Source: a bacterium (lineage in GTDB: Bacteria; Electryoneota; Electryoneia; Electryoneales; Electryoneaceae). From it: 64,000 bases of DNA. The DNA is taken from NCBI GenBank assembly GCA_019912845.1, contig JAIOHU010000194.1, positions 38,603 to 102,602 of the forward strand. Reading direction: 5' to 3'. Positions within the stretch are counted from its first letter, which is position 1. The number at the start of each line of letters is the position of its first letter. Under the pieces are notes generated by a model. The model ran no database searches. It was not told the DNA's origin and saw only the letters and a list, made by a program, of their open reading frames with translations. The position numbers were made by a program, and so were the translations under genes. Positions 15,834 through 54,188 of this stretch are shown one piece after another.

Positions 15834-18800
15834 ATGAATCGGATCAAAAGAATATTCACAGTGATCTGCATCCTATTATCATTTGGCAGTAGTATGGCGC
15901 AGGATAGTCTGAACATTAGCATGCTGGGTAGTTTATACAACAATTGGGATCTATCTGCTGATCTTTTTATCGTCGATACTTTGGTGTTTATCGCAACAAC
16001 TGGTAGTGGTTTAAGGATTTTAGACATCCGTAATCCTGGTTCTCTTAATGAGCTTGGTTTTTGTTATACGCCGAGCAATGCCTACGATGTCGCAGTTGCT
16101 GGTGAATATGCATATATCGCAGATGGAAGCGAAGGGCTTTGTGTTGTTAACGTGAGTGATCTGGAAAATCCAGTAGTCGTTGGTTCATTCGATGAACCCG
16201 AGTGGGTTGAAGGTGTGGCAGTTCATGGAGGGTATGCTTACCTGACAGATTTTTATCAAGGAATGTGGATAGTTGATATCAGTGATCCGCAGAATCCTTT
16301 TCAGGTTAGCTATATAATTTCCCCCGATCATTCGCAGGATATCGCAGTTGTTGAAGATTACGCCTATGTCGCCATCTGGGATGAGGGATTATGGATAGTT
16401 GATATCAGTGATCCGGAAAACCCTGAAGAAGTTGCAACCCTCAGAACCCGTGATTCAGCTCGGGATGTTACTGTGTTTGACGGTTTTGCTTACATAGCTG
16501 ATAACGAAGCGGGTCTCTTTATCGCTGATGTAACTGATCCCGAAAATCCCATCGAAGTTGGCTCCTATGATACTCATGGTCGTACCAGAGGTGTAGCTGT
16601 CACAGAGAACTACTCATTTATCGCAGACAGTCGGGGAATGCGAGTGATTGATATCACCCAGTTGGAAAACCCTCTGGAGGTCGGATTTTACGATTCAATG
16701 TCTCGTACCACCAGCCTTGTCATCTCAGATTGGATCGCTTTTATTTCTGATGAGGTTGGTGGCCTTCGAGTTGTTAATGTACACGATCCTGAACAACCCA
16801 TTGAAATAGGCAGTTATGACACACCAGCATGGGCACGAGAGGTAGTGGTACAGGGAGAATATGCTTTTATCGCGCATGATGAAGGTGGGCTTCGAGTAGT
16901 TGATATAAGGAATGGAGAGAATCTGTTCGAAGCAGCATTCCTCACTTTTCGTCGACCAGCAATGAATATTGATTTGCAGGGGGATTACGTATATGTGGGT
17001 ACTTCTGATTGGGAGCGGGAAGAAGGCGGTCTTAGAATTGTCGATATCAGCAACCCAGTTGCACCTGATGAAACTGCTTTTTTCGATCTAGAAGAGGTGG
17101 TCAGTGATCTTGCAGTTTCAGAAGGGATCGCATTTGTCGCTACAAATGAAACTGATCTTCATATCTTGGATGTATCTGATCCCGAAAATCCATCAGAAAT
17201 CAGCCAACTTTACCTGCAGGGAAATGCTAGCAGTGTTGCAGTTGAAGGAAATTTTGCTTACGTCGTAGCTGCTGGTCTCAGGGTGGTTGATGTAGGCGAC
17301 ATTCAAAATCCTGTCGAAGTAGGGTTTTACAATCCGGTTGGCAACAATATTAGACATGTTGCTGTTTCGGGAGATATAGCTTACATTGCTGAGAGAGGTC
17401 TCAAAGTATTAGATGTCAGTAATCCAGAAAACCTCGTCGAAATTGGGGCGTTCAACGCACCAGGATCAATCCGGAATATTACTGTTGTAGACAGTTATGT
17501 GTTTGTCGCTTATTCCTGGAAACTTAGCACATCCGGTGGATGTCTACGTGTGATTGATGTCAGTGACCCAACACACCCAGAACAAACGGGATTTTACAAA
17601 ACTCCAGGTATTGCAAACAATGTTTGTGCCGTAAACCAGTTCGCTTATGTGGCGGATTCCTACCATTTTGAAGTTTATGACTGTTCCTATGCAATTGATT
17701 GGCCGGATACTGCCAGTGTATCTGGAATCGTAATTGATGAAGAAACCAGTGAGGTTATCTCCGGAGCTGTAGTGTCTTTCGATGAACATCAAACTTCCAC
17801 AAATGAAAATGGTGAATACAACTTCACCCTCCTTTCTCCTGATAATTATTCTGTAGATGCTTATGCTCTGGACTACGAACCATTTCATGCTGGAAGAGTA
17901 CAGCTTGAATCTGGGGAGAACACTTATAATTTTTCTATGCGAAAGAATGAAAGTTTAAATATCGAAATCCTCTCGATGATCGAGTCTCACTACTACAACG
18001 AAGCTGTGGCAATCGAAGGCGATTTTGCATATGTGGCGGATCAGGATTCAGGATTACGCGTTATTGATGTTTCTGATCCGCAATTCCCAAGAGAAATTGG
18101 TTTTTTTCCCGCAAATGACGCATTTCGCGGTGTCGTTGTGTCAAATGGTTACGCTTATCTTGCTGACCACGGAGCAGGATTTCGTATTGCTGATGTCAGT
18201 GATCCAGAAATTCCTGTTGCAGCAGGATCTCTTGCCACGCCAAACCGAGCAAATAAAGTCGTCGTAGAGGGAGATTATGCATACATAGCAAATACCTATG
18301 ACGGTTTGCGTATTGTCAATGTGAGTGATGCGGCAAATCCTGTGGAAATAGGTGTCTGCAATACACCTGACTGTGCGCTTGATGTAGTAGTCGGGGAAGG
18401 TTTCGCGTATATCGCGGATTATAATGAAGGTTTACGGGTGATCGATATTCATGATCCAGCAATTCCGGTTGAAATCGGCTATTTTACAACAGATGATGAA
18501 TGCGCAATTTGCGTTACTGTTGATGGGAATTATGCCTATGTTGGATATGGTATGGATGGGCTTCGCGTCCTTGATATTAGAAATCCGGCTAACCCTGTAG
18601 AAATTAGCCATTATCAAACACCGGGTCGTGTCTACTGCATCAAAGTTGTTGAAAACTTTGCTTTTATTGCTGATTTTTACGATGGATTAAGAGTGCTCGA
18701 TATCAGCGATCCCACCAATATTGCAGAAACAGGTTTTTATAATACGCCAGGAACAGCCCAATGGGTCGAAATTGAAGGTAACCTTGCGTATGTCGCTGAT

Positions 18801-19151
18801 CGAAATCACCTCGAAATTTTCGACTGTTCAAACGCTATGATTGAGAACATTGCACCAAACATTGATGAAATAAGTTTACCACATGATTTTTTTGTCAGCA
18901 ATGCTTACCCAAATCCTTTTAACAGTACAGTAACTGTTACTGTTGGATTGTCCGAAAACGGAATGATTACGTTACGTCTTTTTAATATCCTTGGACAGGT
19001 AAAGTTTGAATCAACACAGAGATTCAACGCTGGATATCATCGTTTGAGTCTTGACGATGAACAGACTTTTGACGTTGTGAGTGGGATCTATTTCCTGCAG
19101 GTGCAGGTTGGTGGAGTGAACGAAGTGCAGAAGGTGATTTTGTTGAGGTAG
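15834..19151 (+). CDS. T9SS cargo protein: two LVIVD-repeat beta-propellers separated by a CarboxypepD_reg-like domain, T9SS C-terminal sorting domain
   Basis: Signal peptide, then ~20 repeats of the LVIVD motif (GLRVIDISDPENPVEVG). A CarbopepD_reg-like segment (SGIVIDEETSEVISGAVVSF...ENGEYNF). C-terminal domain YPNPFNSTVTVTV...IYFLQVQVGG...KVILLR. The first ATG after the long leader is 15834. Confidence 0.8.
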   Translation: MNRIKRIFTVICILLSFGSSMAQDSLNISMLGSLYNNWDLSADLFIVDTLVFIATTGSGLRILDIRNPGSLNELGFCYTPSNAYDVAVAGEYAYIADGSEGLCVVNVSDLENPVVVGSFDEPEWVEGVAVHGGYAYLTDFYQGMWIVDISDPQNPFQVSYIISPDHSQDIAVVEDYAYVAIWDEGLWIVDISDPENPEEVATLRTRDSARDVTVFDGFAYIADNEAGLFIADVTDPENPIEVGSYDTHGRTRGVAVTENYSFIADSRGMRVIDITQLENPLEVGFYDSMSRTTSLVISDWIAFISDEVGGLRVVNVHDPEQPIEIGSYDTPAWAREVVVQGEYAFIAHDEGGLRVVDIRNGENLFEAAFLTFRRPAMNIDLQGDYVYVGTSDWEREEGGLRIVDISNPVAPDETAFFDLEEVVSDLAVSEGIAFVATNETDLHILDVSDPENPSEISQLYLQGNASSVAVEGNFAYVVAAGLRVVDVGDIQNPVEVGFYNPVGNNIRHVAVSGDIAYIAERGLKVLDVSNPENLVEIGAFNAPGSIRNITVVDSYVFVAYSWKLSTSGGCLRVIDVSDPTHPEQTGFYKTPGIANNVCAVNQFAYVADSYHFEVYDCSYAIDWPDTASVSGIVIDEETSEVISGAVVSFDEHQTSTNENGEYNFTLLSPDNYSVDAYALDYEPFHAGRVQLESGENTYNFSMRKNESLNIEILSMIESHYYNEAVAIEGDFAYVADQDSGLRVIDVSDPQFPREIGFFPANDAFRGVVVSNGYAYLADHGAGFRIADVSDPEIPVAAGSLATPNRANKVVVEGDYAYIANTYDGLRIVNVSDAANPVEIGVCNTPDCALDVVVGEGFAYIADYNEGLRVIDIHDPAIPVEIGYFTTDDECAICVTVDGNYAYVGYGMDGLRVLDIRNPANPVEISHYQTPGRVYCIKVVENFAFIADFYDGLRVLDISDPTNIAETGFYNTPGTAQWVEIEGNLAYVADRNHLEIFDCSNAMIENIAPNIDEISLPHDFFVSNAYPNPFNSTVTVTVGLSENGMITLRLFNILGQVKFESTQRFNAGYHRLSLDDEQTFDVVSGIYFLQVQVGGVNEVQKVILLR

Positions 19152-19383
19152 GGTAAAAGCTGGCTCGGGGCTTTGGGCTTCTGGCTTTTAGAAGACTTTA
19201 ACACCCTTCTCAACATCAACTACATCAGTGCTGGCGCACTGAGTCTTGTCTGGTTCCCCGCCTACGCGGGGATGACGAGGCGGACAAGGCTTTGGGCTAT
19301 TGGCTTCGGTTCCGCACGCAACTTCTTCAGATGTCGCAGAACGAAGAGTAACTGGGAGGCACGATGTAAACGGAAAAAATTGC

Positions 19384-19600
19384 TTCCTGGATCCCGGCCC
19401 AACTCATCACCGGGATGACGCGGGGTGTGATGCCACACTGGAATAGATCGGCTTAGAATTTCAAGGGAATTATTAGACTTGGGATAAATCCCAAGCCAGA
19501 ATAAATGCCAAACTGGAGTGTGGCGCTCCAGGGCGGGGTGGTGTAGTCTTCTGCTCCCCGGGTTCCGCTGCGCTACACCACAGGGCTACACCAATCTCCC
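19384..19600. repeat. Intergenic repeat cluster: module A stem-loop, module B hairpin, module C, inverted module D
   Basis: Module A (19384-19440) recurs at 30061, 40090 and 48871. Modules B and C (19449-19531) recur at 48759-48946. 19552-19600 is the reverse complement of module D. Confidence 0.6.
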
Positions 19601-19777
19601 CGAGGCATAAAGTATGTAAACTTGAAATTATAGTCCATTTACTTGCTGTTACATTGATATTGTTCTAAATTGTACTCTAATGTGTCAGCGAAATACCTGG
19701 GGGTTGATTAAGGCTGTCAGTAATACTCCCTGCCCCGTTTTCGTTCATTTGGATACCTTACGGAATTGGAGTCCATC

Positions 19778-21919
19778 ATGATCTATCCTACTCGAAAAAT
19801 CCTGTTTACCATCTTCTGCCTCACTTCCCTTCTTATAAGTTCAACACTGCTTTTCGCACAGGAAGGCATAGAGCTGTTGTCAACCATTGAGAATGAATCG
19901 TGGGAACGTGTCTGGGATGTTACCTACGAGGACAATTTGCTGTATGTATGTGCCGCATCGGAAGGTATGTTTATTTATAATGTTGAGGATCTGGAAAACC
20001 CCGAATTATTGGGTGAGTTCACCACCGGAGCGACAATGAGGCAGGTGACAATCAAATCTGAATATGCCTATATCGCTGCCGCCAGTCAGGGGATGTATGT
20101 TGTGGATATCAGCACACCCACCAATCCCGTGTTGCGTTCTCAACTTGAAATCGACGAATTCACCTGGACAATTGATGTTCATGGCAACATGGCGTATGCC
20201 ACCGAGTTCGGTGATATCTATGCGATTGATATTTCCGACCCGGACGACCCGGAAATTCTATCTGTCATTGATGCACGTTGCTGTCAGAGGAAGGCACTGA
20301 TCAGGGATGGAATCTCTTACTCGCCATCCGAAAATTGGGGTTTCCAAACCATTGATGTTTCCGACATTTTCAATCCTGTTCAACTGGACATGGAACGTGA
20401 GTACAGTGGGACAGCGTATGATGTAGCGTTGCAGGGGGACTATGCTTATGTCGCATATGCACGACAAGGCATTCTCGTGTACGACATTTCCGATCCGTCA
20501 GATATCTTTGTCGCCGGACGAACCTGGGAATATAACAACATTTTCGGGATAGATGTTCAGGATGGGTATGCTTACTTTACCAATAGTTCAAATGGTATAT
20601 CTGTGCTGGATATCAGCAATCCTGTTGATCCTGCACCAGTCGGATCACATGATGTTGAGGGTGTAATATACGGACTCGCCATAAATCCACCCTATGCATT
20701 CATACCTGCAGGAAACACTGTATCAATCTTTGATTGTTCGGAAGCGATCGGTTATGATGACCAGGAAGAGGTAAACATCCCTCTTGCAACAAATCGTTAC
20801 GAACTGGTTTCCATGCCTCGTCTCCCCTTAGACCTCTTCGCAATCAACTTGTTCGAAGATATCCCCCATCTTGCTATCGTACAAAACGAGCAGGGGCAGG
20901 TTCATATACCTGACCTGATCGACGCCGATTGGATGGTGAATCCTACCGAAGCCTACATGATTTATACAAGCGAAGAGAGCGAATGGGTCTATACAGGTAC
21001 AACCATCCGTGCCGACCATGAGTTCAACCTCCAACCTGATACCTGGAATTGGATTGGCTATCCCTTCACTGACGAAATGCTGGTAGAACAAGCGATGGAA
21101 CCGATTTATGATGAGCTGGAAATTATTCTCAATGATGACGGTGAGATTTTCATTCCTGATCCGGATTTTAACATCAACACCATGGGGAATATGACACCCG
21201 GCGAAGGTTATCGTGTCTTTGTAAATGAGGAAGTCGACCTGGAGTATCCAGAGGAACTCGAACGTGCCGGAGCTTTTACAACGGAAAAATGGAATATCCC
21301 TGAAATTGAAGATACTCCTCATGCGACAGGTTTGCCCTGGGTTGTCCTGGTGACGCTGGACGAAAGTATGAAACAGCAGGCAGCGGTTATCGAACTCTAT
21401 GACGGCAACGTTTTGGTCGGCAGAGCTGCTGTGCTCGAAGACAAACCGGTCACGCCGGTAACAGCATGGCAGGCGATCCCGGAGCATGATATTCCAGGCT
21501 TTTTCCCCGGAAATCCGATCAGTGTGAAAGTGTTGGATGAAAGCGGTGAAGTCGTTGGTGAATCAGGGAGTGCAAACGTCAGCTCATCAGCTTTTGGTAA
21601 AGGTCCTTATGCTGAAATCACGGTATCTGCAATCGAGAATGAATCTGAACTCCCACTCGAACTTTCCATGGGCAAAGCCTATCCGAACCCGTTTAATCCG
21701 TCGATCACTGTTCCATTTACCCTGCCGGAAAAAATGGAAGTCAGTTTGAGTTTATACAATATCGTTGGGCAGCTGGTAGCGGAATTGAACCAGGGAGTGC
21801 TGGATCGAGGTCACCATGAATTGGTCTTCGAAGCTGTGAACCAGACTTCCGGTGTCTATTTCCTCGTCTTGAAAGCTGGCGAACATCACGCCATGCAGAA
21901 GGTGATTTTGTTGAAGTAG
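19778..21919 (+). CDS. T9SS cargo protein: N-terminal LVIVD beta-propeller, non-propeller C-terminal half, T9SS C-terminal domain
   Basis: Signal peptide plus LVIVD repeats, then a domain shared with the C-terminal half of the 51153-54188 protein. C-terminal domain AYPNPFNPSITVPFTLPEKM...VYFLVLKAGEHHAMQKVILLK. ATG at 19778; the listed ORF uses an upstream TTG at 19766. Confidence 0.8.
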   Translation: MIYPTRKILFTIFCLTSLLISSTLLFAQEGIELLSTIENESWERVWDVTYEDNLLYVCAASEGMFIYNVEDLENPELLGEFTTGATMRQVTIKSEYAYIAAASQGMYVVDISTPTNPVLRSQLEIDEFTWTIDVHGNMAYATEFGDIYAIDISDPDDPEILSVIDARCCQRKALIRDGISYSPSENWGFQTIDVSDIFNPVQLDMEREYSGTAYDVALQGDYAYVAYARQGILVYDISDPSDIFVAGRTWEYNNIFGIDVQDGYAYFTNSSNGISVLDISNPVDPAPVGSHDVEGVIYGLAINPPYAFIPAGNTVSIFDCSEAIGYDDQEEVNIPLATNRYELVSMPRLPLDLFAINLFEDIPHLAIVQNEQGQVHIPDLIDADWMVNPTEAYMIYTSEESEWVYTGTTIRADHEFNLQPDTWNWIGYPFTDEMLVEQAMEPIYDELEIILNDDGEIFIPDPDFNINTMGNMTPGEGYRVFVNEEVDLEYPEELERAGAFTTEKWNIPEIEDTPHATGLPWVVLVTLDESMKQQAAVIELYDGNVLVGRAAVLEDKPVTPVTAWQAIPEHDIPGFFPGNPISVKVLDESGEVVGESGSANVSSSAFGKGPYAEITVSAIENESELPLELSMGKAYPNPFNPSITVPFTLPEKMEVSLSLYNIVGQLVAELNQGVLDRGHHELVFEAVNQTSGVYFLVLKAGEHHAMQKVILLK

Positions 21920-22031
21920 ATCTGGCTATGAGACAAGTTTATGTGTTTTCATGAAGAAATTGCTTATATGTTAGTTAAGCATTTCTGAATGTAATTTTAA
22001 CACAAAATGTAAAGATAAGGCAGAAGGTATA

Positions 22032-24200
22032 ATGAAAAGAATGATGGTTACTTTGACAATTATAGTGTGCCTAAGTTCGATAGGTTCCGCTTATTCTCAG
22101 GATAGTCTTAATGTCAACATGGTTAAGCAATATTACAGCAACTGGGATTATGCCAGTGATATTGCCGTATCAGGAGAATTTGCATTTGTAACGACATTGA
22201 GAACTGGTTTGAGTGTTCTGGACATTCGCGATCGACACAATCCCGTTGAGGTTGCAAGATGCAGAACAGTTGGTAGGGCTGGAAACATCACTATCCAAGG
22301 TGAACTCGCCTATATTGGCGATTCCCGAGATGGTTGGTTATCAGTTATTGATATAAGTTCACCACAAAATCCACTAGAAATTGGACAATTCCAGTTTGAC
22401 GAACCTATCACAGATGTTGTCATTGAGGGAGACTTTGCTTTTCTCGCCTGTCGCCAAAGTGGTTTGATAGTTGTGGATGTAAGTAATCCAACTGATCCCA
22501 CAATTGTTGATATATACGATACTCCTGGAAATGTCTCTAAAATAGCAATAGCGGGAAATTGTGCGTTTGTGACAGATTCAGATAGCGTACGAATAATCAG
22601 TATTTCTGATGTGATGAATATGGAAGAGTTAGCTGCATTTCCTGCGATACCTTCAGATGTTCATGTCGACAATGGTATCGCCTATGTTTCAGATTGGTCA
22701 GGAGGAATGCATATTATTGATGTAAGCGAACCTGCAAACCCTGTGGAAATGAGTTACTTTATTACTCCACCAAACGCTACGAGCGTTAGTGTTTCAGGAA
22801 ACCTGGTCTATCTTACGCTTGACAATACCGATGTCGATCTCGTGATCATTGATGTTACTGACCCATATAATGCTCTTCAACTTGAAGGTCTTGTAACGAC
22901 AAATAGAACTGAAAATGTTGCTATTGTTGATAATTTTTCCTTTCTAGCTGAAGGGTATGCAGGAATTCAAGTATTTGATGTCACCGAACCTACAGATCCT
23001 TTGCCGGTTGGAGCATATGACCCGTGGGGAAGACTTACAAGAATTGAAAAGAGAGATAGCTTGTTGTTCATTGGAGGGGTAAAAGATACAGACAATACTG
23101 GTGTTTTACGTATCTTGAACATTGGAGATCCAGATCATCCCGTTGAGTTGGGGGAATGCAACCTACCGGGCAGTCCCAAGGAAATTGTGATATCTAATAG
23201 TTACCTATATATAGCTAATGACCATAGCGGACTGTCAGTTATAAACATAGAAGATCTATTAAATCCACAACTAATGGCTTCACTAGGTACAGCACATCGT
23301 GCATATGATGTTTCAATTTTTGAGGGCTGTGCCTACGTTGCAGATTTTGTCGGAGGTTTACGTATTATTGATATTTTAGATCCCTCAAACCCTTCTGAAG
23401 TCACATCCATTGAAACAATCCAAAGCACAAATGCTGTTGAAGTCTTGGACAATATGGCTTACCTAACAGACGAGGATATAGGACTGATTGTTTTTGATAT
23501 AAACGATCCCGAGCATCCGTTGGAAATGGACCGCTATACAAGTCCCCAAAGTGCGACTGATGTAGCAATTTCAAATGGATTTGCGTATGTCGCAAGCGGT
23601 AATCACCTATATATAGTGGACATTAGTGATCCGGAAAATCTTTCTGAAATCTCTATATTTGATAATTCTGGTGAGATAGATGGCGTAACAATTTCAAATG
23701 GATTTGCGTATTTGACGGAAAAAGATGAAGGATATCTTTATATTCTTGATGTACAGGACCCAGCAAATCCAGTTGAGGCTGGCTATTATAACACACCTGG
23801 GGAAGCTTGGGATTTAGTAGTTTCGGATCAAATTGTATTTGTAGCTGACAATAATTACCTGGATGTATTAGACTGTACAGAGGCAATTGAATGGACTGGA
23901 GTTTACGATCAATGGTCATCGCTTCCCTTGGAGGCTATTGTTCAACAAGCATATCCTAATCCATCAAATTCAACAATTACGATACCGTTTGACACTTTCA
24001 ATCCAACACAATTGGAAATCGCAATTTTTAATGTTCTGGGATTACAGGTATTCTCGGCTATTCAAGGATATGGTACCGGACATCATCGATTTGTACTCGA
24101 TTGCAATCAACCTGGACTAAATTTAGTAAGTGGTACATACTTTCTGAAATTCAAAATGAAGGAAAGTACCTTTACCAGGAAGATTACCTTGCTGAAATAG
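22032..24200 (+). CDS. T9SS cargo protein with LVIVD beta-propeller repeats
   Basis: Signal peptide plus QDSLNVNM start, repeated IIDVSxPxNPVE units, C-terminal sorting domain ending TFTRKITLLK. Ribosome-binding site AAGG upstream. Confidence 0.8.
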   Translation: MKRMMVTLTIIVCLSSIGSAYSQDSLNVNMVKQYYSNWDYASDIAVSGEFAFVTTLRTGLSVLDIRDRHNPVEVARCRTVGRAGNITIQGELAYIGDSRDGWLSVIDISSPQNPLEIGQFQFDEPITDVVIEGDFAFLACRQSGLIVVDVSNPTDPTIVDIYDTPGNVSKIAIAGNCAFVTDSDSVRIISISDVMNMEELAAFPAIPSDVHVDNGIAYVSDWSGGMHIIDVSEPANPVEMSYFITPPNATSVSVSGNLVYLTLDNTDVDLVIIDVTDPYNALQLEGLVTTNRTENVAIVDNFSFLAEGYAGIQVFDVTEPTDPLPVGAYDPWGRLTRIEKRDSLLFIGGVKDTDNTGVLRILNIGDPDHPVELGECNLPGSPKEIVISNSYLYIANDHSGLSVINIEDLLNPQLMASLGTAHRAYDVSIFEGCAYVADFVGGLRIIDILDPSNPSEVTSIETIQSTNAVEVLDNMAYLTDEDIGLIVFDINDPEHPLEMDRYTSPQSATDVAISNGFAYVASGNHLYIVDISDPENLSEISIFDNSGEIDGVTISNGFAYLTEKDEGYLYILDVQDPANPVEAGYYNTPGEAWDLVVSDQIVFVADNNYLDVLDCTEAIEWTGVYDQWSSLPLEAIVQQAYPNPSNSTITIPFDTFNPTQLEIAIFNVLGLQVFSAIQGYGTGHHRFVLDCNQPGLNLVSGTYFLKFKMKESTFTRKITLLK

Positions 24201-24500
24201 AACAATAGCACGGAATCTTGTATTCCGAGAAAAAGGTTCCCTGAGTCGACGCAAGCGATCAAATTGAAATTGTATTGGTGAATTAATGTTTCGCTACTAG
24301 AGAGACGATTCCGACAAGTGGACAACCTGAACCACTTCAATCGGCCATCAGAGGTGAAGACAATCCAAATTGATGTGAGAATCTTAAGCTGTTGAGATGT
24401 ATGATTAGGTTCAATCGGAATCGCTCTGAATCTTTTCCCTGGGATGCAAGTTCCCTGGCTACGCTTACTAGAACGAACAGCTACATGATAGTAATAGTTT

Positions 24501-27500
24501 ATGAGGAGATCAGTTTTGAAACTATTCACTGCGTTGTTAATGTCAATAATTCTTTTCTGCACAACAGCCTCTGTTTTTGGTCAAGACAGCTTGAACATAA
24601 ACATTATCTCCAGGCTGGATACTCCTGGATGGGCAAGAAGTATCGCAGTATCAAATGGACATGCCTTCGTTGCAGACAGTGCGAATGGAGTTCGAATTAT
24701 TAATGTTGAAGATAGGACTAACCCATGGCACGTAGGAGTATTTGACCCACTTTCTGAAGCATTTGAAGTGAATGTCTCCGAGGACATTCTCTATGTAACA
24801 ACTCGTTCCGGTGTTCACATACTGAGTTTGGATAATCCCGCAACCCCGGAAGAGATCAGTGTATACGAAAACGGACAATTTGGAACTATTCAAGTTCAAG
24901 ATGGGATTGCCTACCTGTCATATGGTCGGAACCTTAGAATTGTTGATGTGACGGATCCTGAAAATCCAACATTCATTTCTGATTGTGGGGTTGTAGCTTC
25001 TCCCCTTGGAATCGACATTTCAGAGGAATATGCCTATTTGGCGTGCAACAATGATGGTGGACTTAGGATTATTGATATCTCCGACCTCTTTAACCCCGTT
25101 GCGATGGGGTTCTATGATACCATTGGATGGGCGAATGATGTTGCGGTTGATGGTGATATCGCTTGTGTTGCTGATGGACCACGCGGTTTGCATTTGATCG
25201 ACATAAGCAATCCTGATTCTCCCCAATTAATCAGTAGCGTTGATTTGCCTGGCTATTCACGACGCGTTCAGATTATTCAAAATCACGCAATTGTAGCAGC
25301 GAGTGGCGGCGGGTTGCGAATCGTAGATTTCAGTGACCCTGAAGACCCCATGATAACAGGGTTCTACAGAACACCTGGCGGTGCAGAAAGTATATATGCA
25401 AAATCAATACGCTTATGTAGCTGATAATATTTATTTCGATATTTTCGATTGTTCCGATGCACTGCTTGATCCTGGACCTGCAAATGTTTTCGGTGTTGTC
25501 ACAGATAGCATTAATGCGCACCCAATACCAAATGCGACTGTTAGATTTAATCTAAACGAAACAGTTACTGATGAGAATGGAGAATATTCCCTGGTTGATT
25601 TGGAGTTTGGTGAATATAATATCAGGGTATCAGCAAATGGTTATCAAGATTTCATCCAGAACGGAGTATATATTTGGCCGGGCGATAATTTTTTAGACTT
25701 TGATCTACGTTATTCAGATAGTCTCAACATTAATATGTTGTGCCTATTGGATACTCCAGACAATTCACATGCTGTTGCTTTCAGTGATAGTTATGCCTTT
25801 ATCGCATCAGAAGAAGCTGGATTGGTTGTTGTCGATGTAAGTGACCCTGAAAATGCTACTGTCATAAGTACATTCGATACTCCAGATTGGGCAAATGGAA
25901 TTGATGTGGTAGATGGATATGCCTATGTCGCAGATGCAGAATCAGGTTTAAGAATAATAGATGTAACTGACCCTGAAAATCCTGCTGAGATTGGAGTTTA
26001 TAACACACCCGGTTATTGCCACGATGTAATCGTTATAGACAATATTGCTTATGTAGCTGATCGATTTGGTGGGCTCAGAGTTCTTGATGTAAGTGATCCT
26101 GCGCATCCGGTTCAAATTGGTGTTTACAACACAAATGACATGGCACATAGTATTGATTATTCTGATGGTTACGTGTATATCGGAAGCATTTATAGCAGAA
26201 TTCATATTATCAATGTTTCAGATCCCGCAAATCCCCAACAAGTAAGTTCAATTAATATGAACCGAACTGATGATATCACTGTCAGCCAAGGTTTCCTGTA
26301 TGTAGCTGCCAGAAGTGATGGTTTAGTAATATTTGATGTCACGGATCCTGCAAATCCGAGAGAGATGGGAAATTATGATGCGAGCGGTTCAGTCTCTGGT
26401 GTCGAGTATGTTGATGGATACGCATTCTTGACTGCTTCCTGGGCTGGTGGATTCCATGTTGTTAACGTATTCAATCCTGAAAATCCCTATCAGACAGGAT
26501 ATTATGATACCCCGGCACAAGCATTTGATGTGGTCGTTGAGGATAACCTTGCTTATGTAGCTGATTATCATAGTTTCCAAATTTATGATTGCACAGAAGC
26601 TACACCAGAAATATTACCAGCTTCGGTTTCAGGCAGAGTTAGTGATAGCGGAACTGATCAAGGGATTGTGCATGCTGAAGTAAGATTTGGAAATCGATCT
26701 GCATACACTGACCTTGATGGTAATTATCAACTCCACGATTTGGGGTCAGTGAACTATGATGTGAGAATTACTGCAACTGGATATCGTGGTTTTACACAGG
26801 AAAATTTCCAGGTATTGGAGGGTGAAAACGAGTTTAATGCAGTACTGATCTTGGATGACAGTCTAAATGTGAATCGAATTTCAATTTTAGAATCTCCACA
26901 AGTAGCACGAAATGTATTTGGAACAAGTGAACATCTTTTTATTGCAGATAGTATTGATGGACTCAGGATTTTCGATATATCGGATCCTGTGAATCCAAAT
27001 CAAATTGGAGTTACAGAAACTATCACAGGCGCCTGGGATGTTGAATTCATCAATATTACAACATTTGCATTATCCAGTTCCGATGGAATTCATATAATTG
27101 ATCCACAAATTAGGATGTCACCTGTTGAAGTTGGATTTATTGAAACTGCTGGAGACGCCTACGGTATCGAATCAATGGATCATTTCCTTTTAGTCGCCTC
27201 GGGTACAGATGGTTTGCTGATTATTGATGTGGCAGACAGGAATAACCCTGTGGTGGTGGGGTCGATAGAGACTACTGGTTTTGCCTGGGATGTTTCGGTT
27301 CAAGGAAATACCGCTCTGATTGCGGACGGTGCTGATGGAGGTGTCCGTCTGATTAATATTGAAAACCCTGCAGATCCTGTTGAAATAGGGTTTATTGTTA
27401 CTGAGGGATCGGCTCTTGGAATTGTAGTAGATGATGATCTTGCTTATGTCGCCGATGGAATAGCTGGATTGAAGATTATCGATATGAGTAACGTAGAAAT

Positions 27501-28053
27501 GCCAGCAATTATTGCGTCCTATGCTGTACCAGGCATATCAACCAATGTGTTTCTTGAAAATGGAGTTCTCTACCTTGCATCACAGTTTGCCGGTTTACGA
27601 ATTATTGATATAGAGGATCCTGAAAATCTGCATGAGAGCGGATACTACACGACTGAAGGGAATGCATTGGCAGTAGCGGCTCGAGAAGAATTCGCCTATG
27701 TCGCTGCGGGTGAATTTCTCGAAATTTACGATTGTTCCAGCGCGCTTGGCTGGAATCCTGTGCAAAACCGAACTGATCTTGTCCCACCTTCTACAATCGC
27801 TCTGGAGCCAGCCTATCCGAACCCGTTTAATCCGTCGATCACTGTGCCATTTACCCTGCCGGAAAAGATGGATGTACGTTTGAGACTGTACAATATCATC
27901 GGGCAGCAGGTGGCTGAATTAAATCAGGGAGTGCTGGATCGAGGTCACCATGAATTGGTCTTCGAAGCTGTGAACCAGACTTCCGGTGTTTATTTCATCG
28001 TGTTGGAAGCGGGTGAACATCAAGCCATGCAGAAGGTGATACTGCTAAAATAG
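24501..28053 (+). pseudogene. T9SS cargo LVIVD-propeller gene (~1180 aa if joined) interrupted by a +1 frameshift in an A4 run at 25400-25403
   Basis: ORF 24501-25424 (signal peptide plus first propeller) and ORF 25381-28053 (CarbopepD_reg, propeller, CarbopepD_reg, propeller, C-terminal domain) join seamlessly if one A is removed. The joined protein has the paralog pattern TPGxAxx...AYVADxxxxxIFDCSDA. The joined architecture matches the 15834-19151 paralog. Confidence 0.6.
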
Positions 28054-28121
28054 ATCAATATGCCGGATTAAAATAACTCTGTTGGGAATCAAATACTGCC
28101 GATTAATTCAGCGTAAAAATT

Positions 28122-37300: not shown

Positions 37301-38827
37301 ATGAAAAGAATTTTCTGGCATAGTCGCTGGTTCATGCTGGTAAACCTGGTGCTTCTGCTCATGAACTCCACCATTTTTTCACAAATCCATATTTCTGGCG
37401 AGATCAGCGGCGTTCTCGAAGATACACTCTATATCATAGATGACGACATCACTTTGCGTGGATTTGATACTTTGACAATATCAGGCGGTGCAGAGTTGGA
37501 GTTCATGCCGGACACTTACTTTGCGATTTATGGACGTTTGATCACGGATGGTGCGGAAGGTGATACGATTCGGTTTAGGTCTCATCTGGCAGATTCTACC
37601 TGGCGAGGCATTAACTTCAGGACAGGTGGTAGAGGTGATTTTAACTACTGTCTGATCAGGGATGCCCATATTGGAATACAGGGATGGATGGGTGGAGAAA
37701 TCCGAAACTGTGTGTTTATTTATAATGATGGCGCCATGGGAAGCGCTGCCGACAGGATTTATGATAGTATAGTTCGACACAATAGGCAGGGAATTAATGC
37801 AAATGGAACTGAAGAATTTCCTGATTCTGTTATAAATTGTGATGCTTCCTACAATAGAGACTATGGCATTAATGCTAGCGGGGCAATAATTAAGAACTGT
37901 ATCATATCTTATAATGGATCCGATCCAGAAGTGGATGGCGTTGGGATATCAGCGTCTAGCCATACGGTAGTTGATTCCTGTATGATCTTCCAAAACAGGT
38001 GTTCTCGAGGTGGTGTTTATCTTTCAAATGGATCTACAATTAAAAATTCAATGATATTTGCTAACCAGGGTGAAATTGGTGGAGGAATTACCACTCATCT
38101 TAGCGGTTGTTTAGTTGATAAATGTACGATTATTGGAAACAACGTTATTTCACACCTTTCTATTGGATCCGGTGTGTGGATGGAAGGGTACAATGATGTT
38201 TTAACAAACAGTATTGTAGCATATAACACCGGATATCTTACTAATGGAGTAGATCATCATTATGTTAGAGAAGAAAATATTGTGACCTATAATCTGATTT
38301 ATGGTAATGACAACAGGCAATACCGCCAGATGGATACCACCGAATATTATTTATACCGCAACCTCAATGAGACCCCATGCGACTCATTGTTCAATATATA
38401 CCTCGACCCCAGACTGTTAGACATCGAAAATAATATATTTGAACTAACTGCAGATTCACCCTGTATTGATGCAGGTGATCCTGACCACCTTTATGATCCG
38501 GATAATACCATTACTGATATAGGCTATCATTATTATCCCCACGAAAGTATTGTTAAAAAATCGAATCTTGAGAATCAAATCGTGAGCATTTTTGATGTCT
38601 ATCCAAATCCATTCAATCAGAATCTGAAGGTGAACATTTTAACGGATGATCTTCTACCGGATGCTGAGCTGAAAATTTATGATCTGCTCGGAAGACAATT
38701 GATATCAGCTAAAATTAACAATCCCAGGCAAAGTTATAACTTCGAAGGTTTTTGCTCTGGCACTTATTTTATTAGAGTAACACAGGGGAACTACCAGGAG
38801 AGTAGAACTGTCTATCATATCAAATAA
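37301..38827 (+). CDS. Secreted right-handed beta-helix (pectin-lyase-fold) protein with T9SS C-terminal sorting domain
   Basis: Signal peptide. Repeated parallel beta-helix rungs (NCDASYNRDYGINASGAIIKNCIISYNGS...). C-terminal domain VYPNPFNQNLKVNI...GTYFIRVTQGN...TVYHIK. Confidence 0.7.
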   Translation: MKRIFWHSRWFMLVNLVLLLMNSTIFSQIHISGEISGVLEDTLYIIDDDITLRGFDTLTISGGAELEFMPDTYFAIYGRLITDGAEGDTIRFRSHLADSTWRGINFRTGGRGDFNYCLIRDAHIGIQGWMGGEIRNCVFIYNDGAMGSAADRIYDSIVRHNRQGINANGTEEFPDSVINCDASYNRDYGINASGAIIKNCIISYNGSDPEVDGVGISASSHTVVDSCMIFQNRCSRGGVYLSNGSTIKNSMIFANQGEIGGGITTHLSGCLVDKCTIIGNNVISHLSIGSGVWMEGYNDVLTNSIVAYNTGYLTNGVDHHYVREENIVTYNLIYGNDNRQYRQMDTTEYYLYRNLNETPCDSLFNIYLDPRLLDIENNIFELTADSPCIDAGDPDHLYDPDNTITDIGYHYYPHESIVKKSNLENQIVSIFDVYPNPFNQNLKVNILTDDLLPDAELKIYDLLGRQLISAKINNPRQSYNFEGFCSGTYFIRVTQGNYQESRTVYHIK

Positions 38828-46537: not shown

Positions 46538-48745
46538 ATGAAATTCATCCTCGCTTTTTTCGTGCTTTTTCCTTCATTCATATTTGCACAGGACAGTCTG
46601 AACATGAGCCTGCTGAAGCACTTCCAGACCTACGAACCGTTTGCCTGTGATGTTACCTCGATTGATAACTACGTTTATGTCGCAAATCATATCGATGGCA
46701 TTGTTATCGTGGATATCTCTAATCCTCAAGAACCTGATGATTTTACAAAAGTTCCTGTTCCTACAAATTGCTTTAACCTGTTTATTCTTGATCCGTACCT
46801 GTATGTAAGTGGTTTCCATAGTGATAATCCTGAAAATCAATCCGGTCTCTATATATTTAATATTGAAAACAGGGAAGAACCGGAATTTATTACTCGCTAC
46901 GAGCAGCAGTCTTCTTATATGGTGAATGTAGGTGAAACTCTTTTTACAGCAAACCCCTGGTACATTACCATCCTCAACCTGGAAAATAGAACTCAGCCAG
47001 ATACCCTGGCGCGAATTGGACGCGAGAATAGTTTATATTATGAGAACTCAATACACGTAGCGAACTCACACCTCTTCATCATCAACAGAGAACACATTCT
47101 AAAATGTTTTAATGTTGTAGATCCAGCGAATCCCCAACTGGTGGATACGTTACATCTTGAAACAGGTGCGAACGACTTGACTTCCATGGGTTCTACACTC
47201 TTGGTGGGTAATAGTGAAAATGGAATCACCACAATTGATATTTCGAATCCAGCCGAACTAACCAGAATCAATAACTTCGAAGTGTACAGTCCTGTTAGAC
47301 ATGTAGGTACGGTAAGCGATCACTTTGCGCTGTCAGTCCACAGGGAGGAACGTGATGATTGGCCGGACAGCCTTTATGTATTTGATATACTGGACAATGG
47401 TGATATTGATGTTCTTGGCAGCCACTATCTTCAGAATTTTACAGGTGTATTGTTATACGAACAAGCGGGAAACCTGCTGTTTCTGGCAGATGATTATTTG
47501 CGAATTGTTGATGTAAGCGATTTAGCCAACATGGTGGAATTGGGTACAACTCAACAACCTATACAATTCTTGTCCACAGTTGTTATCGGTGATCGTTACT
47601 ATGGAATGCTTGATGGATATATCTGGATTATTGATATATCAAACCGTGATGAAATCGAAATCCTGGGAAAAAAACCTGTAAATCACCGGGCGTTCAGTGA
47701 TCGTGCCAGAAATGCCCTGGCCACAGATGGCACCAATCTCTGGATTGGTTGTGCTGGTTGTTGGTTGTATAAAGCTGAAGTATTGCAGGATGCACCCTGG
47801 GTGACACTCGTTGATTCAGTAAACCTTTATACAGACGAAGACACCTTCGCCCCTGTTATTCATGTGGAGAGTGAATCCAATACCCTTTACTACAGCGAAC
47901 ATACTGAAAATCTTTGTGCGATTGATTTGTCTACATTTGAAATCAGTCAAATCTACAATACCCATGGGATAATATCCGATATTGAACATCAGGATGATCT
48001 TCTTTTTGTCACAATTCTTCAAGATTCCATTTATATATTCGATAAAAGTGATGCTATGCTTCCTGTTCTTTCATCTACCATTTACCATGATGGTGTTGGT
48101 TTGCCAGGAAGCGTGGTTACTGTCGAAAACAGTCTATATTACAATTATTTATATGGAATTCGAAAATATGATATATCGAATCCATTTGATCCCATTATGA
48201 TTGGGAATTACACCCCCCCCTACATCAGGACGAGTATTATTCTGGATAAAGTTGGTGAGTACGTAGTTTATAACAATATATCAGGAGTAGACTACTTATT
48301 CGTGCTCGATTTAACAAGTGATGATCCTGCTGAATGGCAACCTGTCGCCTGGCACCGAGCCAGTATAGCCGGTATATGGACTTTTACTGTCAGCGATAAT
48401 CTCCTTCTAGCAGAAAATTATATCTACCAAGTTTCAGATGAGCTTAATCCAGTAAAGGAGATAGATGAGGAAGTTGGGTTACCAGGTAATATCACCCTCT
48501 CAACCTCACCCAATCCGTTCAATGAAACTATTCAGATTACCTTTACTTTGCCCCATAGAACAAATGTAGATATTGCGTTATATGATCTTTTAGGCAGGGA
48601 AATAGCTTCTATTGTACAGGACAGAGTCTTTGATGTTGGGAAATACAATTATTCCTGGTCTCCATCCATATCGTCCGGGATATATTTTGTTCGACTGGAA
48701 GGTAACGGAGTATCAATTAATCAGAAGATAATATATCTGAAGTGA
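46538..48745 (+). CDS. T9SS cargo protein with degenerate beta-propeller repeats and T9SS C-terminal domain
   Basis: Signal peptide plus QDSLNMSL start. Repeated IVDISNP-like units. C-terminal domain SPNPFNETIQITFTLPHRTNVDIALYDLLGREIA...GIYFVRLEGNGVSINQKIIYLK. Confidence 0.75.
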   Translation: MKFILAFFVLFPSFIFAQDSLNMSLLKHFQTYEPFACDVTSIDNYVYVANHIDGIVIVDISNPQEPDDFTKVPVPTNCFNLFILDPYLYVSGFHSDNPENQSGLYIFNIENREEPEFITRYEQQSSYMVNVGETLFTANPWYITILNLENRTQPDTLARIGRENSLYYENSIHVANSHLFIINREHILKCFNVVDPANPQLVDTLHLETGANDLTSMGSTLLVGNSENGITTIDISNPAELTRINNFEVYSPVRHVGTVSDHFALSVHREERDDWPDSLYVFDILDNGDIDVLGSHYLQNFTGVLLYEQAGNLLFLADDYLRIVDVSDLANMVELGTTQQPIQFLSTVVIGDRYYGMLDGYIWIIDISNRDEIEILGKKPVNHRAFSDRARNALATDGTNLWIGCAGCWLYKAEVLQDAPWVTLVDSVNLYTDEDTFAPVIHVESESNTLYYSEHTENLCAIDLSTFEISQIYNTHGIISDIEHQDDLLFVTILQDSIYIFDKSDAMLPVLSSTIYHDGVGLPGSVVTVENSLYYNYLYGIRKYDISNPFDPIMIGNYTPPYIRTSIILDKVGEYVVYNNISGVDYLFVLDLTSDDPAEWQPVAWHRASIAGIWTFTVSDNLLLAENYIYQVSDELNPVKEIDEEVGLPGNITLSTSPNPFNETIQITFTLPHRTNVDIALYDLLGREIASIVQDRVFDVGKYNYSWSPSISSGIYFVRLEGNGVSINQKIIYLK

Positions 48746-51152: not shown

Positions 51153-54100
51153 CTATCTTACGAGTACGATTTTCATAGATCTGCTTTCACCCTTGAAGCT
51201 CAAGGTTACGATATAGATTCCACTGACTAGATTGTTCGCTTGTTTCGTAGATTGAACCAGATATCGATTAACTCCCGCAGGGTAATGCTTTGATTCTTTG
51301 AACACAACTTGACCCTGAATATTATAGACAATCAAACTCACATCACCTTCACCAGGCAATGTGAAGGGAATTGTCACTGCTGGATTGAAAGGTTGTGGAT
51401 ATGGATTTGAGACTGTGAATTTCTCGGGCAAGTTGCTGTTGTTTGTATTCACGAGAGTAATGTGACCATAGGGATTACCGAAGTACTTTACCTGCTTACT
51501 CGTAGTTAAACTGTTACCTTCGTCATCCAGCCCACGAATGGTTACTGCTTCTCCTGTTTGTGCCCCAGTAAATTTGTCGGCGCTATTTTTTCCCCAGACA
51601 ACAAGCGGTACCAACGATTGTCCTTCCATCGGGATTGCACTACCAATCAGTTCGCCGTTCGTATTGCGCGCTTCCAGCAATGCGATACCATCCATCGATG
51701 ATTCTCCAGCCACTTCAACAAGGACAATCCATGGAATTCCCGTTGGTGAAACACCTGGCGATACTGCTGTGGGAAGAGGTTCGGCTATTGTCGTTCTTGC
51801 TAATTGTTCAGGTTGTGGATAGTTGAAGGTGATATCAGCATTGGCGAATACCATCAACCCGCGTCCTGGATGCATATCACCCAGCGTATTGATAAACCCT
51901 GGTATCCATGCCCCACCCTCAACGTCAGTTGCGATGATTATCGCACCTTCCACTTCAGCTAGAGCAGTGGAGGCATCGATGTTTTGCTGGTAAAGATGTC
52001 CCAGCCAGTTCCAGCGATTAGCAGCTAATGAATAGGTGAAATCCGTTGGTAGCTCTTCTCCTTGTACTACCCAGGCGGAAGGTTCTTCGCAGAACAATTG
52101 ATATGCCTCAGACAGGTCAACAGTACCAATGGTGTTGATACCCAATTCCGGAAGTAGAATTCCACCGTCATCATTTTGGGCGATATTAAGATTTTGAATT
52201 GATCCAAATACATCCTCCGCATTCAGGAATGCTGGTCTCACTGGGGAGGTAACCAGTTCATAAAATCTACTTCGCAATGGAAGTTCGAGTTGCTCATTAC
52301 CATGTTGACCATCCACTTCTATTGTTCTTACCGAAGCGACACGGATTTTTTCTGAGATTATTGCAAATTCTCCTGCTAAAGCAGTCTTTCTGATATTATC
52401 CCCACGTGCACGATGACCAATCATGATAGGTTCATCAGCATTTGTAACATCAAATACTTCTATTATAGTCTGATCTTGAGTAACCCATAGAGCACCGTTT
52501 TGATAGTCCAGATCAGCCACAAATGCAATGCTGGTTGGCTCAATTGTTGAACGTATCACTGGATCAGCCGGATTTGTTATGTCAATTACCCAAACGCCTT
52601 GTTGCAAGTTGCTGATATAGACTCTATCTGCTGACATGGTTATTGGACCATAAGGTCCTTCCAGTTCGAGAGATCCCACTAGCTGTGGATTCGTACGATC
52701 ATGAGTGTCATAAAGTAGAAGCCCATCTTCATCATCCAGGAAAGCAACCATCTCTCCGAACGTAGCAATTCGTCTGATGAAGGAAGGTGCCTGAATTTCT
52801 GCAATAATTTGATAACGCGGACCTGGAACAAGGTCATACACTTCTACCTGTTCTTCTGTGGATACAAACAATAACCCGTTGCCAATCGCATGTGAATGAA
52901 AAGCTTGGATTCCCCAGGAATACAATTGTTCGAGGTTATCCGGATGTGTAACATCAATTACACGCATCCGTCCGGAGTTTGACGAATACGATCCTGCGAA
53001 CAGATAATTATTGTAGTGATCAAATCCTGAAATTCTGTGATTCGTGTACCCGATTGAGTCTTGTTCCACAAGGTCCTGTGGAATTGAAATATCTATTGTT
53101 CGAATCGCATGGGTTTGATAGTCGTGCAAAAAAGCATAATTACCGATAATATCAATTTCCTTGACCAATCCAACTGTCAAATAACTTCCTGCAACTTGTG
53201 GATTATCCGGTGCTGTATAGTCGATCACATATAATCCAAAAGGACCTGAACCGTCCCAGAAGGCGAAATAAGCGTAACCATCCTTTGCCACAACACCTTC
53301 CCAGTAGGGACGGTAATATTCCTGATTTTCGAGCATTCCAATCAGGTTTACTGTTGGAGGCTCTGAGATGTTGACAACTGATATCTGGTGAGGTCCATCA
53401 GAAATGATCCCCATAGGATAGTCGATGGCCATCCCAAGTGCATGATGAGGATCATAACCTCCAATTCCAACTAAACTGATATTGGCAGGATCAGACACAT
53501 CAAATATCTGAACATCATCATCAGTTACATAAAGTAAATCATTGTGAAGTAATACTTCACAGGCATGACCAAGCGTTGCATTAATACTCGCAATTTCCAC
53601 AGGTGCATTAATTTCGGATATATCGTATACAAACAGATCACCATCCGTTGCTACATACAGATAAGGATAATCTGTTAGTAGTTCTGTCTGGCGACTCTCA
53701 GCTATCCTTCTATTGACAACAAGTTGAGGTACAGCGGGGACACTCACGTCATAAATTACTAAACCATCTTCGTAGGTAATCGCATAGTTTTCCCAGAGAT
53801 TTATATCCTTGATCCACGATACACTCTCAGGACCACGAAAGACATTTACAGGGTCATAGGGATTGCTGATATCGAATATCTCCAGACGGGACGAAACCAC
53901 ATAAAGCCATGGGAAATCAACTACAGGCGAACAGAAACCAGCTGCATTCTCTGTAAAAGCCACACTGATCCCGGAAGGATTTTCAGGATCACTTACATCG
54001 TAAAGATAAACATTTTCACCATGACCACCCTGGTATACGATTGTATCATTTTTCGTGATGTCATAAGTTCTATAGATACTGAAGAGTAAAGCATCAACTG

Positions 54101-54188
54101 TTGGTATATCCGGTTGTGCGTTACCAGGCAAAGGGAATAAAAGAGTGATATAGATAGACACGACCAAAATATTAAGAAGTATTTTCAT
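51153..54188 (-). CDS. T9SS cargo protein (~1011 aa): LVIVD propeller region, shared non-propeller domain, T9SS C-terminal domain
   Basis: Signal peptide (MKILLNILVVSIYITLLFPLPGNAQ) and LVIVD-type repeats. The middle domain is homologous to the C-terminal half of the 19778-21919 protein. C-terminal domain NPYPQPFNPAVTIPFTLPGEGDVSLIVYNIQGQ...KIVLVR. Confidence 0.8.
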   Translation of the reverse strand: MKILLNILVVSIYITLLFPLPGNAQPDIPTVDALLFSIYRTYDITKNDTIVYQGGHGENVYLYDVSDPENPSGISVAFTENAAGFCSPVVDFPWLYVVSSRLEIFDISNPYDPVNVFRGPESVSWIKDINLWENYAITYEDGLVIYDVSVPAVPQLVVNRRIAESRQTELLTDYPYLYVATDGDLFVYDISEINAPVEIASINATLGHACEVLLHNDLLYVTDDDVQIFDVSDPANISLVGIGGYDPHHALGMAIDYPMGIISDGPHQISVVNISEPPTVNLIGMLENQEYYRPYWEGVVAKDGYAYFAFWDGSGPFGLYVIDYTAPDNPQVAGSYLTVGLVKEIDIIGNYAFLHDYQTHAIRTIDISIPQDLVEQDSIGYTNHRISGFDHYNNYLFAGSYSSNSGRMRVIDVTHPDNLEQLYSWGIQAFHSHAIGNGLLFVSTEEQVEVYDLVPGPRYQIIAEIQAPSFIRRIATFGEMVAFLDDEDGLLLYDTHDRTNPQLVGSLELEGPYGPITMSADRVYISNLQQGVWVIDITNPADPVIRSTIEPTSIAFVADLDYQNGALWVTQDQTIIEVFDVTNADEPIMIGHRARGDNIRKTALAGEFAIISEKIRVASVRTIEVDGQHGNEQLELPLRSRFYELVTSPVRPAFLNAEDVFGSIQNLNIAQNDDGGILLPELGINTIGTVDLSEAYQLFCEEPSAWVVQGEELPTDFTYSLAANRWNWLGHLYQQNIDASTALAEVEGAIIIATDVEGGAWIPGFINTLGDMHPGRGLMVFANADITFNYPQPEQLARTTIAEPLPTAVSPGVSPTGIPWIVLVEVAGESSMDGIALLEARNTNGELIGSAIPMEGQSLVPLVVWGKNSADKFTGAQTGEAVTIRGLDDEGNSLTTSKQVKYFGNPYGHITLVNTNNSNLPEKFTVSNPYPQPFNPAVTIPFTLPGEGDVSLIVYNIQGQVVFKESKHYPAGVNRYLVQSTKQANNLVSGIYIVTLSFKGESRSMKIVLVR

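Follow-up and report, generated by a model that had tools for sequence, protein, structure and literature searches.

LVIVD propeller proteins with type IX sorting domains encoded in a chromosomal stretch of a candidate Electryoneota bacterium

What might be the function of the large repetitive proteins that are encoded by four neighboring genes in a chromosomal stretch from the metagenome-assembled genome of an uncultured bacterium? The stretch analyzed here (the window) comprises 64,000 nucleotides (nt) of the 104,075-bp contig JAIOHU010000194.1 (assembly GCA_019912845.1, positions 38,603 to 102,602 of the forward strand). Its mean guanine plus cytosine (G+C) content is about 0.44, and its proteins have been deposited at NCBI as MBZ02653xx. 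Seven of its genes, called A to G in the following, encode products with a C-terminal type IX secretion system (T9SS) tag and are interspersed among the housekeeping genes of the window. Genes A–D are neighbors on the plus strand, and E, F and G lie apart from them (Table 1). The observations described below make it quite probable that the seven products are exported T9SS type A-tagged proteins, most of them built of LVIVD β-propellers, that they are old, diverged paralogs, and that they serve as binding scaffolds. The seven are diverged members of a known protein type, already annotated automatically, from a phylum that has been little studied.

An original prediction, made by reading the sequence, had combined the four adjacent genes with those at 37301, 46538 and 51153 into one set of cargo genes, and had assigned LVIVD, CarboxypepD_reg and T9SS type A C-terminal domains to the products. 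Searches with hidden Markov models (HMMs) bear out both the set, which consists of seven genes, six of them with LVIVD repeats, and the assignments, all of which exceed the curated thresholds; the outcome named beforehand as refuting them, a lack of HMM support, did not occur. The extent of the set had been overestimated. The seven genes sum to 17,953 nt, or 28% of the window instead of about 40 percent, and their products, 508–1184 residues in length, are large proteins rather than giant ones. A tblastn search with all seven proteins found no further fragments of the family in the window.

The sorting domain is present in all seven proteins. Por_Secre_tail (PF18962, cut-off 27 bits) is matched with 29.1–42.5 bits (A 34, B 41, C 41, E 42.5, F 36, G 29), and the type A sorting domain TIGR04183 (cut-off 23 bits) with 33.4–45.7 bits (A 44.6, E 45.7). 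Every match ends 7 or fewer residues from the C-terminus, and the motifs PNPFN, G.Y and K..LLK align in all seven sequences. In the predicted structures of C and B the domain (residues 636–720 and 646–715, respectively) consists of six long strands and additional short ones, as expected of an Ig-like β-sandwich, and a profile search matched the solved sorting domain 8glj_D with an E-value of 1.6e-5. At the opposite end, each of the seven proteins starts with a charged n-region and a hydrophobic h-region, followed by small residues at positions -3 and -1 and then by a Gln. These signal peptides and their cleavage sites were judged by eye. Both ends are shared with the type A T9SS cargo of Bacteroidota, such as the gingipains, which carry a C-terminal β-sandwich of 70–80 residues with the same three motifs and, at the N-terminus, a Sec signal with Gln next to it at +1 (PMC11285876; PMC5837995). 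In contrast to these proteins, those of the window belong to a flagellated lineage of the Fibrobacteres-Chlorobi-Bacteroidetes (FCB) group outside Bacteroidota.

LVIVD repeats (PF08309, gathering score 20.2 bits) were found by Pfam in A with 555 bits over 18 stretches, in B with 84 bits, in C with 280, in F with 61 and in G with 45.5. Gene D is divided into two overlapping open reading frames (ORFs), which score 130 and 222 bits; E has no PF08309 match. CarboxypepD_reg (PF13620, cut-off 32.3 bits) occurs once in A (48.8 bits) and twice in D (90.8 bits). The choice-of-anchor B model TIGR04312 has a cut-off of 100 bits, which is exceeded by A (183 bits) alone, the downstream ORF of D reaching 99.9, C 88, the upstream ORF of D 42, B 31, and F and G less than 25.

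To count the blades, an HMM was constructed from the repeats of the window itself. It counts 21 blades in A (14, a spacer and 7), 7 in B, 14 in C and 21 in D (7+7+7), at least 8 in F and about 13–14 in G. That the counts in A–D are multiples of seven argues for seven-bladed propellers. The blades are 40–48 residues long each and have the consensus ..V.V.G.YAYVA....GL.I.D.SDP.NP. An LVIVD repeat is predicted to be a 42-residue, four-stranded blade, seven of which would close one propeller. The propellers would be arranged singly, as 14-blade doubles or three per chain, and by analogy with the model of C the 14-blade unit of A would be a double seven-bladed propeller.

The AlphaFold model of C, calculated from 39 sequences, has a mean predicted local distance difference test score (pLDDT) of 90.6. 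Its 56 strands form 14 sets of four and precede a β-sandwich tail. The top Foldseek matches of the model in the PDB are tandem seven-bladed propellers, namely the sugar-sensing domains of BT4663 and BT4673, and also tandem WD proteins, the latter with template modeling (TM) scores of up to 0.64. The two sensor domains (PDB 4a2l and 3ott), which give the best Foldseek E-values (6e-19 to 1e-18), are the periplasmic parts of Bacteroides hybrid two-component systems. They consist of two seven-bladed propellers and a C-terminal β domain and bind sugars on the propeller faces. Their superposition on C is poor, however (TM about 0.3), and the window proteins have no Reg_prop match in Pfam, no membrane anchor and no kinase, and have a secretion domain at their C-terminal end. 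In the model of B (pLDDT 87.4), 28 propeller strands are followed by a well-modeled β-rich region of about 287 residues, called module X below, and then by the tail. With the whole B model Foldseek returned propeller matches alone and gave no placement of module X.

All propeller units have the same strand order at their ends. The single strand that opens them is of the kind usually found after the LVIVD motif, and their last blade stops once its third strand is complete, at ..[IF][FY]DC[ST]. The DSLN motif belongs to the opening strand. A six-frame search of the window located DSLN[IV][NES] at five places, all of them within these genes and at the opening of a propeller unit; the variant ESLNIE opens the last propeller of A and DSLNMS opens F. 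B and G lack the motif, with which each propeller had been predicted to start. In the model of C, likewise, an additional strand precedes the first blade, and the last blade has only three. This is the order seen in PorZ of Porphyromonas gingivalis (PDB 5m11), in which a seven-stranded T9SS sorting domain comes after two consecutive seven-fold propellers (PMC5121618, PMC8545088) and in which the N-terminal segment, once the two propellers are formed, provides strand four of the last blade (PMC5121618). Because the strand order of the window proteins is that of PorZ, we infer that the DSLN strand closes the propeller ring.

Protein E has no LVIVD repeats, and its N-terminal head has no match in Pfam. 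It aligns over its full length (28% identity, E-value 5e-44) with a protein of an LCP-89 bacterium that has Beta_helix/NosD and Por_Secre_tail matches and is itself located in a comparable cargo array, in agreement with the different fold that had been predicted for this gene.

Table 1. Coordinates of the cargo genes and of features within them (positions in the window; aa, amino acids)
Feature	Position	Strand	Description
Gene A	15834..19151	+	1105 aa: signal peptide, 14 blades, CarboxypepD_reg, 7 blades, T9SS type A C-terminal domain
A, 14-blade unit	15900..17699	+	QDSLNIS at start, FEVYDCS at end; from blade positions and translation
A, CarboxypepD_reg-like β-sandwich spacer	17715..17936	+	PF13620, residues 628-701
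A, third propeller	17949..18845	+	7 blades, ESLNIE to LEIFDCS
A, T9SS type A C-terminal sorting domain	18906..19139	+	Pfam, NCBIfam
Gene B	19778..21919	+	713 aa from ATG: signal peptide, 7-blade propeller, module X, sorting domain
B, seven-bladed propeller	19871..20749	+	No DSLN start; ends VSIFDCS
B, module X	20765..21625	+	About 287 aa, β-rich, no Pfam model; also in G
B, T9SS type A C-terminal sorting domain	21680..21907	+	Pfam, NCBIfam
B/D shared block, copy 1	21676..21922	+	247 nt, 89% identity
Gene C	22032..24200	+	722 aa: signal peptide, 14 blades (predicted as two seven-bladed propellers), sorting domain
Gene D	24501..28053	+	About 1184 aa with frame repaired: signal peptide, propeller, CarboxypepD_reg, propeller, CarboxypepD_reg, propeller, sorting domain
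D, frame break	25391..25397	+	TATATAT tract; from sequence and three-frame translation
D, first CarboxypepD_reg	25486..25686	+	PF13620
D, second propeller	25717..26604	+	7 blades, DSLNIN to FQIYDCT
D, second CarboxypepD_reg	26620..26850	+	PF13620
D, third propeller	26857..27747	+	7 blades, DSLNVN to LEIYDCS
D, T9SS type A C-terminal sorting domain	27814..28041	+	Pfam, NCBIfam
B/D shared block, copy 2	27810..28056	+	3' end of D
Gene E	37301..38827	+	508 aa: signal peptide, parallel β-helix-like repeats, T9SS type A C-terminal domain; no propeller
Gene F	46538..48745	+	735 aa: signal peptide, diverged LVIVD propellers from QDSLNMS, sorting domain
Gene G	51153..54188	-	About 1011 aa from ATG: signal peptide, about 13-14 diverged blades, module X, sorting domain

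The route of type A cargo, from the Sec pathway through the T9SS to the removal of the sorting domain, is established (PMC5121618, PMC8545088, PMC11285876), and the process by which the window proteins may reach their site of action can be described along the same lines. The Sec signal peptide would be removed, leaving Gln at position +1. The folded protein would then be recognized through its C-terminal β-sandwich and moved across the outer membrane by the T9SS. The sorting domain would be cut off, and the protein would be either released or attached to the cell surface. The propellers, with CarboxypepD_reg domains (Ig-like) or the unnamed module (about 285 residues) as spacers, might there bind polymers, particles or other proteins with their faces, without catalysis. 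The propeller proteins are likely to be secreted or surface-attached binding scaffolds. Their dependence on a T9SS and the adhesin role that had been proposed for them are putative. Propellers homologous to those of the window are fused, according to Pfam, to many extracellular domains, lectin, cadherin, PKD, dockerin, cohesin and peptidase domains among them.

The closest known relatives are the LVIVD cell-surface proteins (PF08309; Adindla et al. 2004, PMC2447325) and the choice-of-anchor B proteins (TIGR04312), with which the window proteins share the 42-residue repeat, the predicted four-strand blades and the extracellular setting. The combination of LVIVD with Por_Secre_tail is found in hundreds of database homologs. 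Many homologs in Calditrichaeota, Latescibacteria, Krumholzibacteriota and LCP-89 are named T9SS type A sorting domain proteins. Compared with this family, the window proteins are about 25–33% identical to outside proteins as a whole, and up to 46% in single modules; their chains of three propellers separated by CarboxypepD_reg domains, and the joining of propellers to module X, are particular arrangements.

The nine clear propeller modules of the window are 21–39% identical to one another in pairwise comparison. Modules of other organisms are equally or more similar to them, with up to 46% identity, and the top foreign homologs are 33% identical to the whole of C (LCP-89 bacterium B3_LCP) and about 31% identical to B. 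As foreign modules are no less similar than those within the window, the paralogs are old or their divergence is saturated, and a recent burst of tandem duplication was rejected. A repeat search found no long DNA repeats except for one block of 247 nt shared by B and D. The block extends from the first codons of the sorting domain (AYPNPFN) to 3 nt beyond the stop codon. Its copies differ in 27 of 244 nt and contain a run of more than 60 identical bases, and their flanks are unrelated in the alignment. The block stems from gene conversion or a module swap, the one recent event of this kind, and occasional exchange of modules among the paralogs probably continues.

The G+C content is 0.40–0.42 in C, D, F and G, compared with 0.45–0.49 in the adjacent housekeeping genes (regions 22000–28000, 46000–48000 and 52000–54000). 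The difference may be due to amino-acid composition or to later acquisition.

The two ORFs of D (24501–25424 and 25381–28053) meet at a short TA tract. With one extra TA unit the gene would probably read TPGGAESIYMQNQYAYVAD, which agrees with the paralogs in length and pattern, residue for residue. The break may reflect a genuine loss of 2 nt, slippage, or a mistake in the assembly; a metagenome scan gave no match to either allele of the tract. The NCBI annotation has the downstream part of D alone, as an 885-residue carboxypeptidase regulatory-like domain protein. B and C are named T9SS type A sorting-domain proteins there. The annotated B is identical to the 713-residue protein described here. 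C was annotated from Met30 (693 residues), and thereby lost the signal peptide and the DSLN strand (22032–22121), whereas the ORF from 22032 has a normal signal peptide.

Module X of B has a counterpart in G at about 51400–52300 on the minus strand. Residues 291–1022 of G align with residues 35–717 of B, that is, along the whole length of B, with 27% identity (E-value 1e-65). The module, which is modeled in B at a pLDDT of about 80–95, has no match in Pfam even at an E-value of 10. It nevertheless matches 2209 representative proteins at E-values of 1e-3 or lower, and 140 at 1e-30 or lower. The matches run end to end and always lie 95–105 residues from the C-terminus. In the ten proteins that were checked, the tail after the module is Por_Secre_tail in every case, and the heads that precede it vary, with subtilase, LVIVD, Omp28-like and Ig-like domains among them. 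Module X may be an unnamed domain family that is tied to the T9SS sorting domain.

Five relatives of the host were found with UvrD, which is 51–60% identical in them. The gene order LDcluster4-YceG-UvrD-TPR-NadC (TPR, tetratricopeptide repeat) is kept in these genomes. None of the five has LVIVD genes upstream of this order or a cargo gene between the TPR gene and NadC, and in two of them an efflux operon occupies the upstream junction in place of the array. The array and gene E thus sit at variable spots of a conserved backbone. Relatives have cargo clusters of their own at other places. One of them has three genes with choice-of-anchor B or LVIVD matches and a sorting domain on a contig of 4.09 Mb, adjoining cargo genes with Laminin_G, C25 peptidase, FG-GAP and BNR domains, and comparable cargo arrays are also present in LCP-89. 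Among the close UvrD matches, the only named one comes from Candidatus Electryonea clarkiae (55% identity) of the phylum Candidatus Electryoneota in the FCB group, a superphylum across which the T9SS is spread according to a review (PMC11205867). Members of this phylum have been reported to encode flagella (PMC9324843). The flagellin gene of the window (3117–3953) had been considered unusual for a lineage with a T9SS. As the Electryoneota are described as flagellated, it is expected rather than odd, and its reading as an anomaly was rejected.

Several points weigh against the conclusion that the seven genes encode T9SS-exported binding scaffolds. There is no T9SS core gene (SprA/Sov, PorK/L/M/N, PorU or PorV) within the 64 kb window, so secretion by this system is deduced from the sorting domain and the taxonomy; the placement in Electryoneota is provisional, as it is derived from one marker protein and one named relative; and the signal peptides of A–G rest on judgment by eye. 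The literature on LVIVD propellers offers the original description of the repeat together with a guess at attachment, and names no ligand or function. Moreover, the sole solved structure matched by the family profile (E-value 2e-16) is an enzyme, the phosphotriesterase or haloalkylphosphorus hydrolase of Sphingobium sp. TCM1 (PDB 5hrm and 5ioj), so that catalysis keeps a small probability. This enzyme is a seven-bladed propeller with LVIVD-like motifs. Its homology to the window proteins, along with weak matches of these to SBP56 and MtoX, would permit them to be secreted metal-dependent hydrolases of the Sphingobium kind or members of the selenium-binding-protein/methanethiol oxidase group. 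The second propeller of D even has His in three blades (NSHAV, YCHDV and MAHSI) at the position aligned with the His metal ligands of the Sphingobium enzyme, reportedly those described by Mabanglo et al. 2016. The three residues may be a metal site or a coincidence; no other aligned blade has His there, the position being occupied by R, T, S, N, E or L and not conserved between paralogs. The hydrolase has a two-metal site and long loop insertions between its blades, whereas the blades of the window are compact and lack such insertions, and the SBP56 and MtoX scores are far under the cut-offs. The conserved blade positions are those of the hydrophobic core and of loop residues, and they recur in every blade. 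Since the conserved positions are structural and those equivalent to metal ligands are variable, binding is favored over catalysis. An enzymatic function is very unlikely, and membership in the Sphingobium (Sb-PTE) type of phosphotriesterase was rejected. It might also be asked whether a double-propeller protein such as C could be, instead of cargo, the counterpart of PorZ, the surface component of the T9SS that hands anionic lipopolysaccharide to the sortase PorU. The architecture is alike, with a canonical sorting domain after the two propellers, and so is the strand order (PMC5121618); the top fold matches of C, BT4663 and BT4673, are the structural relatives of PorZ named in the same paper; PorZ is among the fold matches of B; and PF21544, the family of the PorZ N-terminal propeller, is listed for many homologs. 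However, none of the window proteins, the blades of which are of the LVIVD type, matches a PorZ family of NCBIfam or Pfam at an E-value of 0.01 or lower, and 5m11 is not among the PDB profile matches at 1e-3 or lower. There are many such proteins per genome, here as well as in the relatives, which fits cargo better than a single part of a machine and makes a PorZ-like role extremely improbable.

Another alternative concerns the way in which the array evolves. It could be a contingency locus, that is, a rapidly diversifying and perhaps phase-variable surface repertoire created by recent tandem duplication and domain shuffling. The shuffled domain orders that had been predicted are real according to Pfam and the blade counts, and neighboring genes do differ in them; the sorting-domain block was recently copied between B and D; D is broken at a short TA repeat; the array is missing at the same position in the five relatives; and C, D, F and G are lower in G+C than housekeeping genes. 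The modules, though, are not one another's closest relatives, and at 21–39% identity they stem from duplications that are either old or saturated. Apart from the sorting-domain block there are no long DNA repeats, and a tract of (TA)3-4 is short for a phase-variation switch, the break in it being possibly an assembly error. The nearest sampled relatives are so distant (UvrD 60% identical at most) that rates are beyond measurement. What is recent here is the B/D copy and the 2-nt frameshift in D, so that the predicted rapid diversification found no support and a contingency locus is unlikely. In a further proposal, module X would be a new and widespread adaptor placed directly before the sorting domain, which serves the secretion, processing or anchoring of varied heads; the double propellers of LVIVD type would bind glycans or lipopolysaccharide in the manner of PorZ; and the two together would form a surface coat that this flagellated lineage outside Bacteroidota remodels by module swaps between paralogs. 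Taken as a whole, this proposal is quite improbable.

Exported binding scaffolds of old descent are the preferred reading. The finding leaves current views unaltered, and the annotation of the genes is correct and fairly ordinary. In a little-known phylum of the FCB group, T9SS-tagged propeller proteins are seen to take up much of a chromosomal region, and the finding extends the catalog of T9SS propeller cargo beyond Bacteroidota. It also raises the questions of what LVIVD propellers, a family of thousands, bind, and what the module before the sorting domain does.

Among the housekeeping genes of the window are those for a flagellin, two SPFH proteins, an Omp85 protein, YceG, UvrD, a large TPR protein, NadC, Fpg, ComM, a release factor, PrmC, a cyclophilin and a hybrid histidine kinase. 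Scans of the window with Rfam and for tRNAs gave no match, and a promoter scan gave a site count not above that of shuffled sequence. A terminator scan found only a few plausible hairpins 3' of gene ends.

The large TPR protein (33455–37168, 1237 residues) is found at the same position in all five relatives, and its stronger matches are generic TPR models. It was rejected as PorW/SprE with a score of 76 bits against a cut-off of 250. The C25 peptidase that adjoins an LVIVD gene in a relative was likewise rejected as PorU (36 bits against a cut-off of 450).

Gln at +1 was read by eye in 10 of the 11 window proteins taken to be signal peptidase I substrates. The genes of these ten start at 12772, 15834, 19778, 22032, 24501, 33455, 37301 and 46538 on the plus strand and at 51056 and 54188 on the minus strand. 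Such a "Q-rule" has been described for Bacteroidetes and is patchy elsewhere in the FCB group (PMC5837995); the pattern seen here appears to be the same rule in a likely Electryoneota genome.

The 1.6 kb upstream of A (14230–15833) contain no convincing gene and no Rfam or tRNA match. An imperfect direct repeat of 43 nt, 81% identical, lies within this region at 14987–15029 and 15311–15353. At the other end of the array, 67 nt past the stop codon of D, there is a palindrome with a 12-bp stem (TTAAGGCGTCGA...TCGACGCCTTAA; 28120–28149). It was scored as terminator-like for the minus strand only, where a T run follows.

Between LDcluster4 and YceG the window has a gene for a predicted lipoprotein of 270 residues (29191–30003), which the relatives lack at this place. 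Its matches to UshA-like (seleno)protein families are below threshold. A protein of 699 residues is encoded on the minus strand between F and G (48957–51056). It starts with a signal peptide or a lipobox-like sequence, has no sorting domain and is possibly an outer-membrane barrel, with a weak match to the TonB Plug domain (E-value 0.012).

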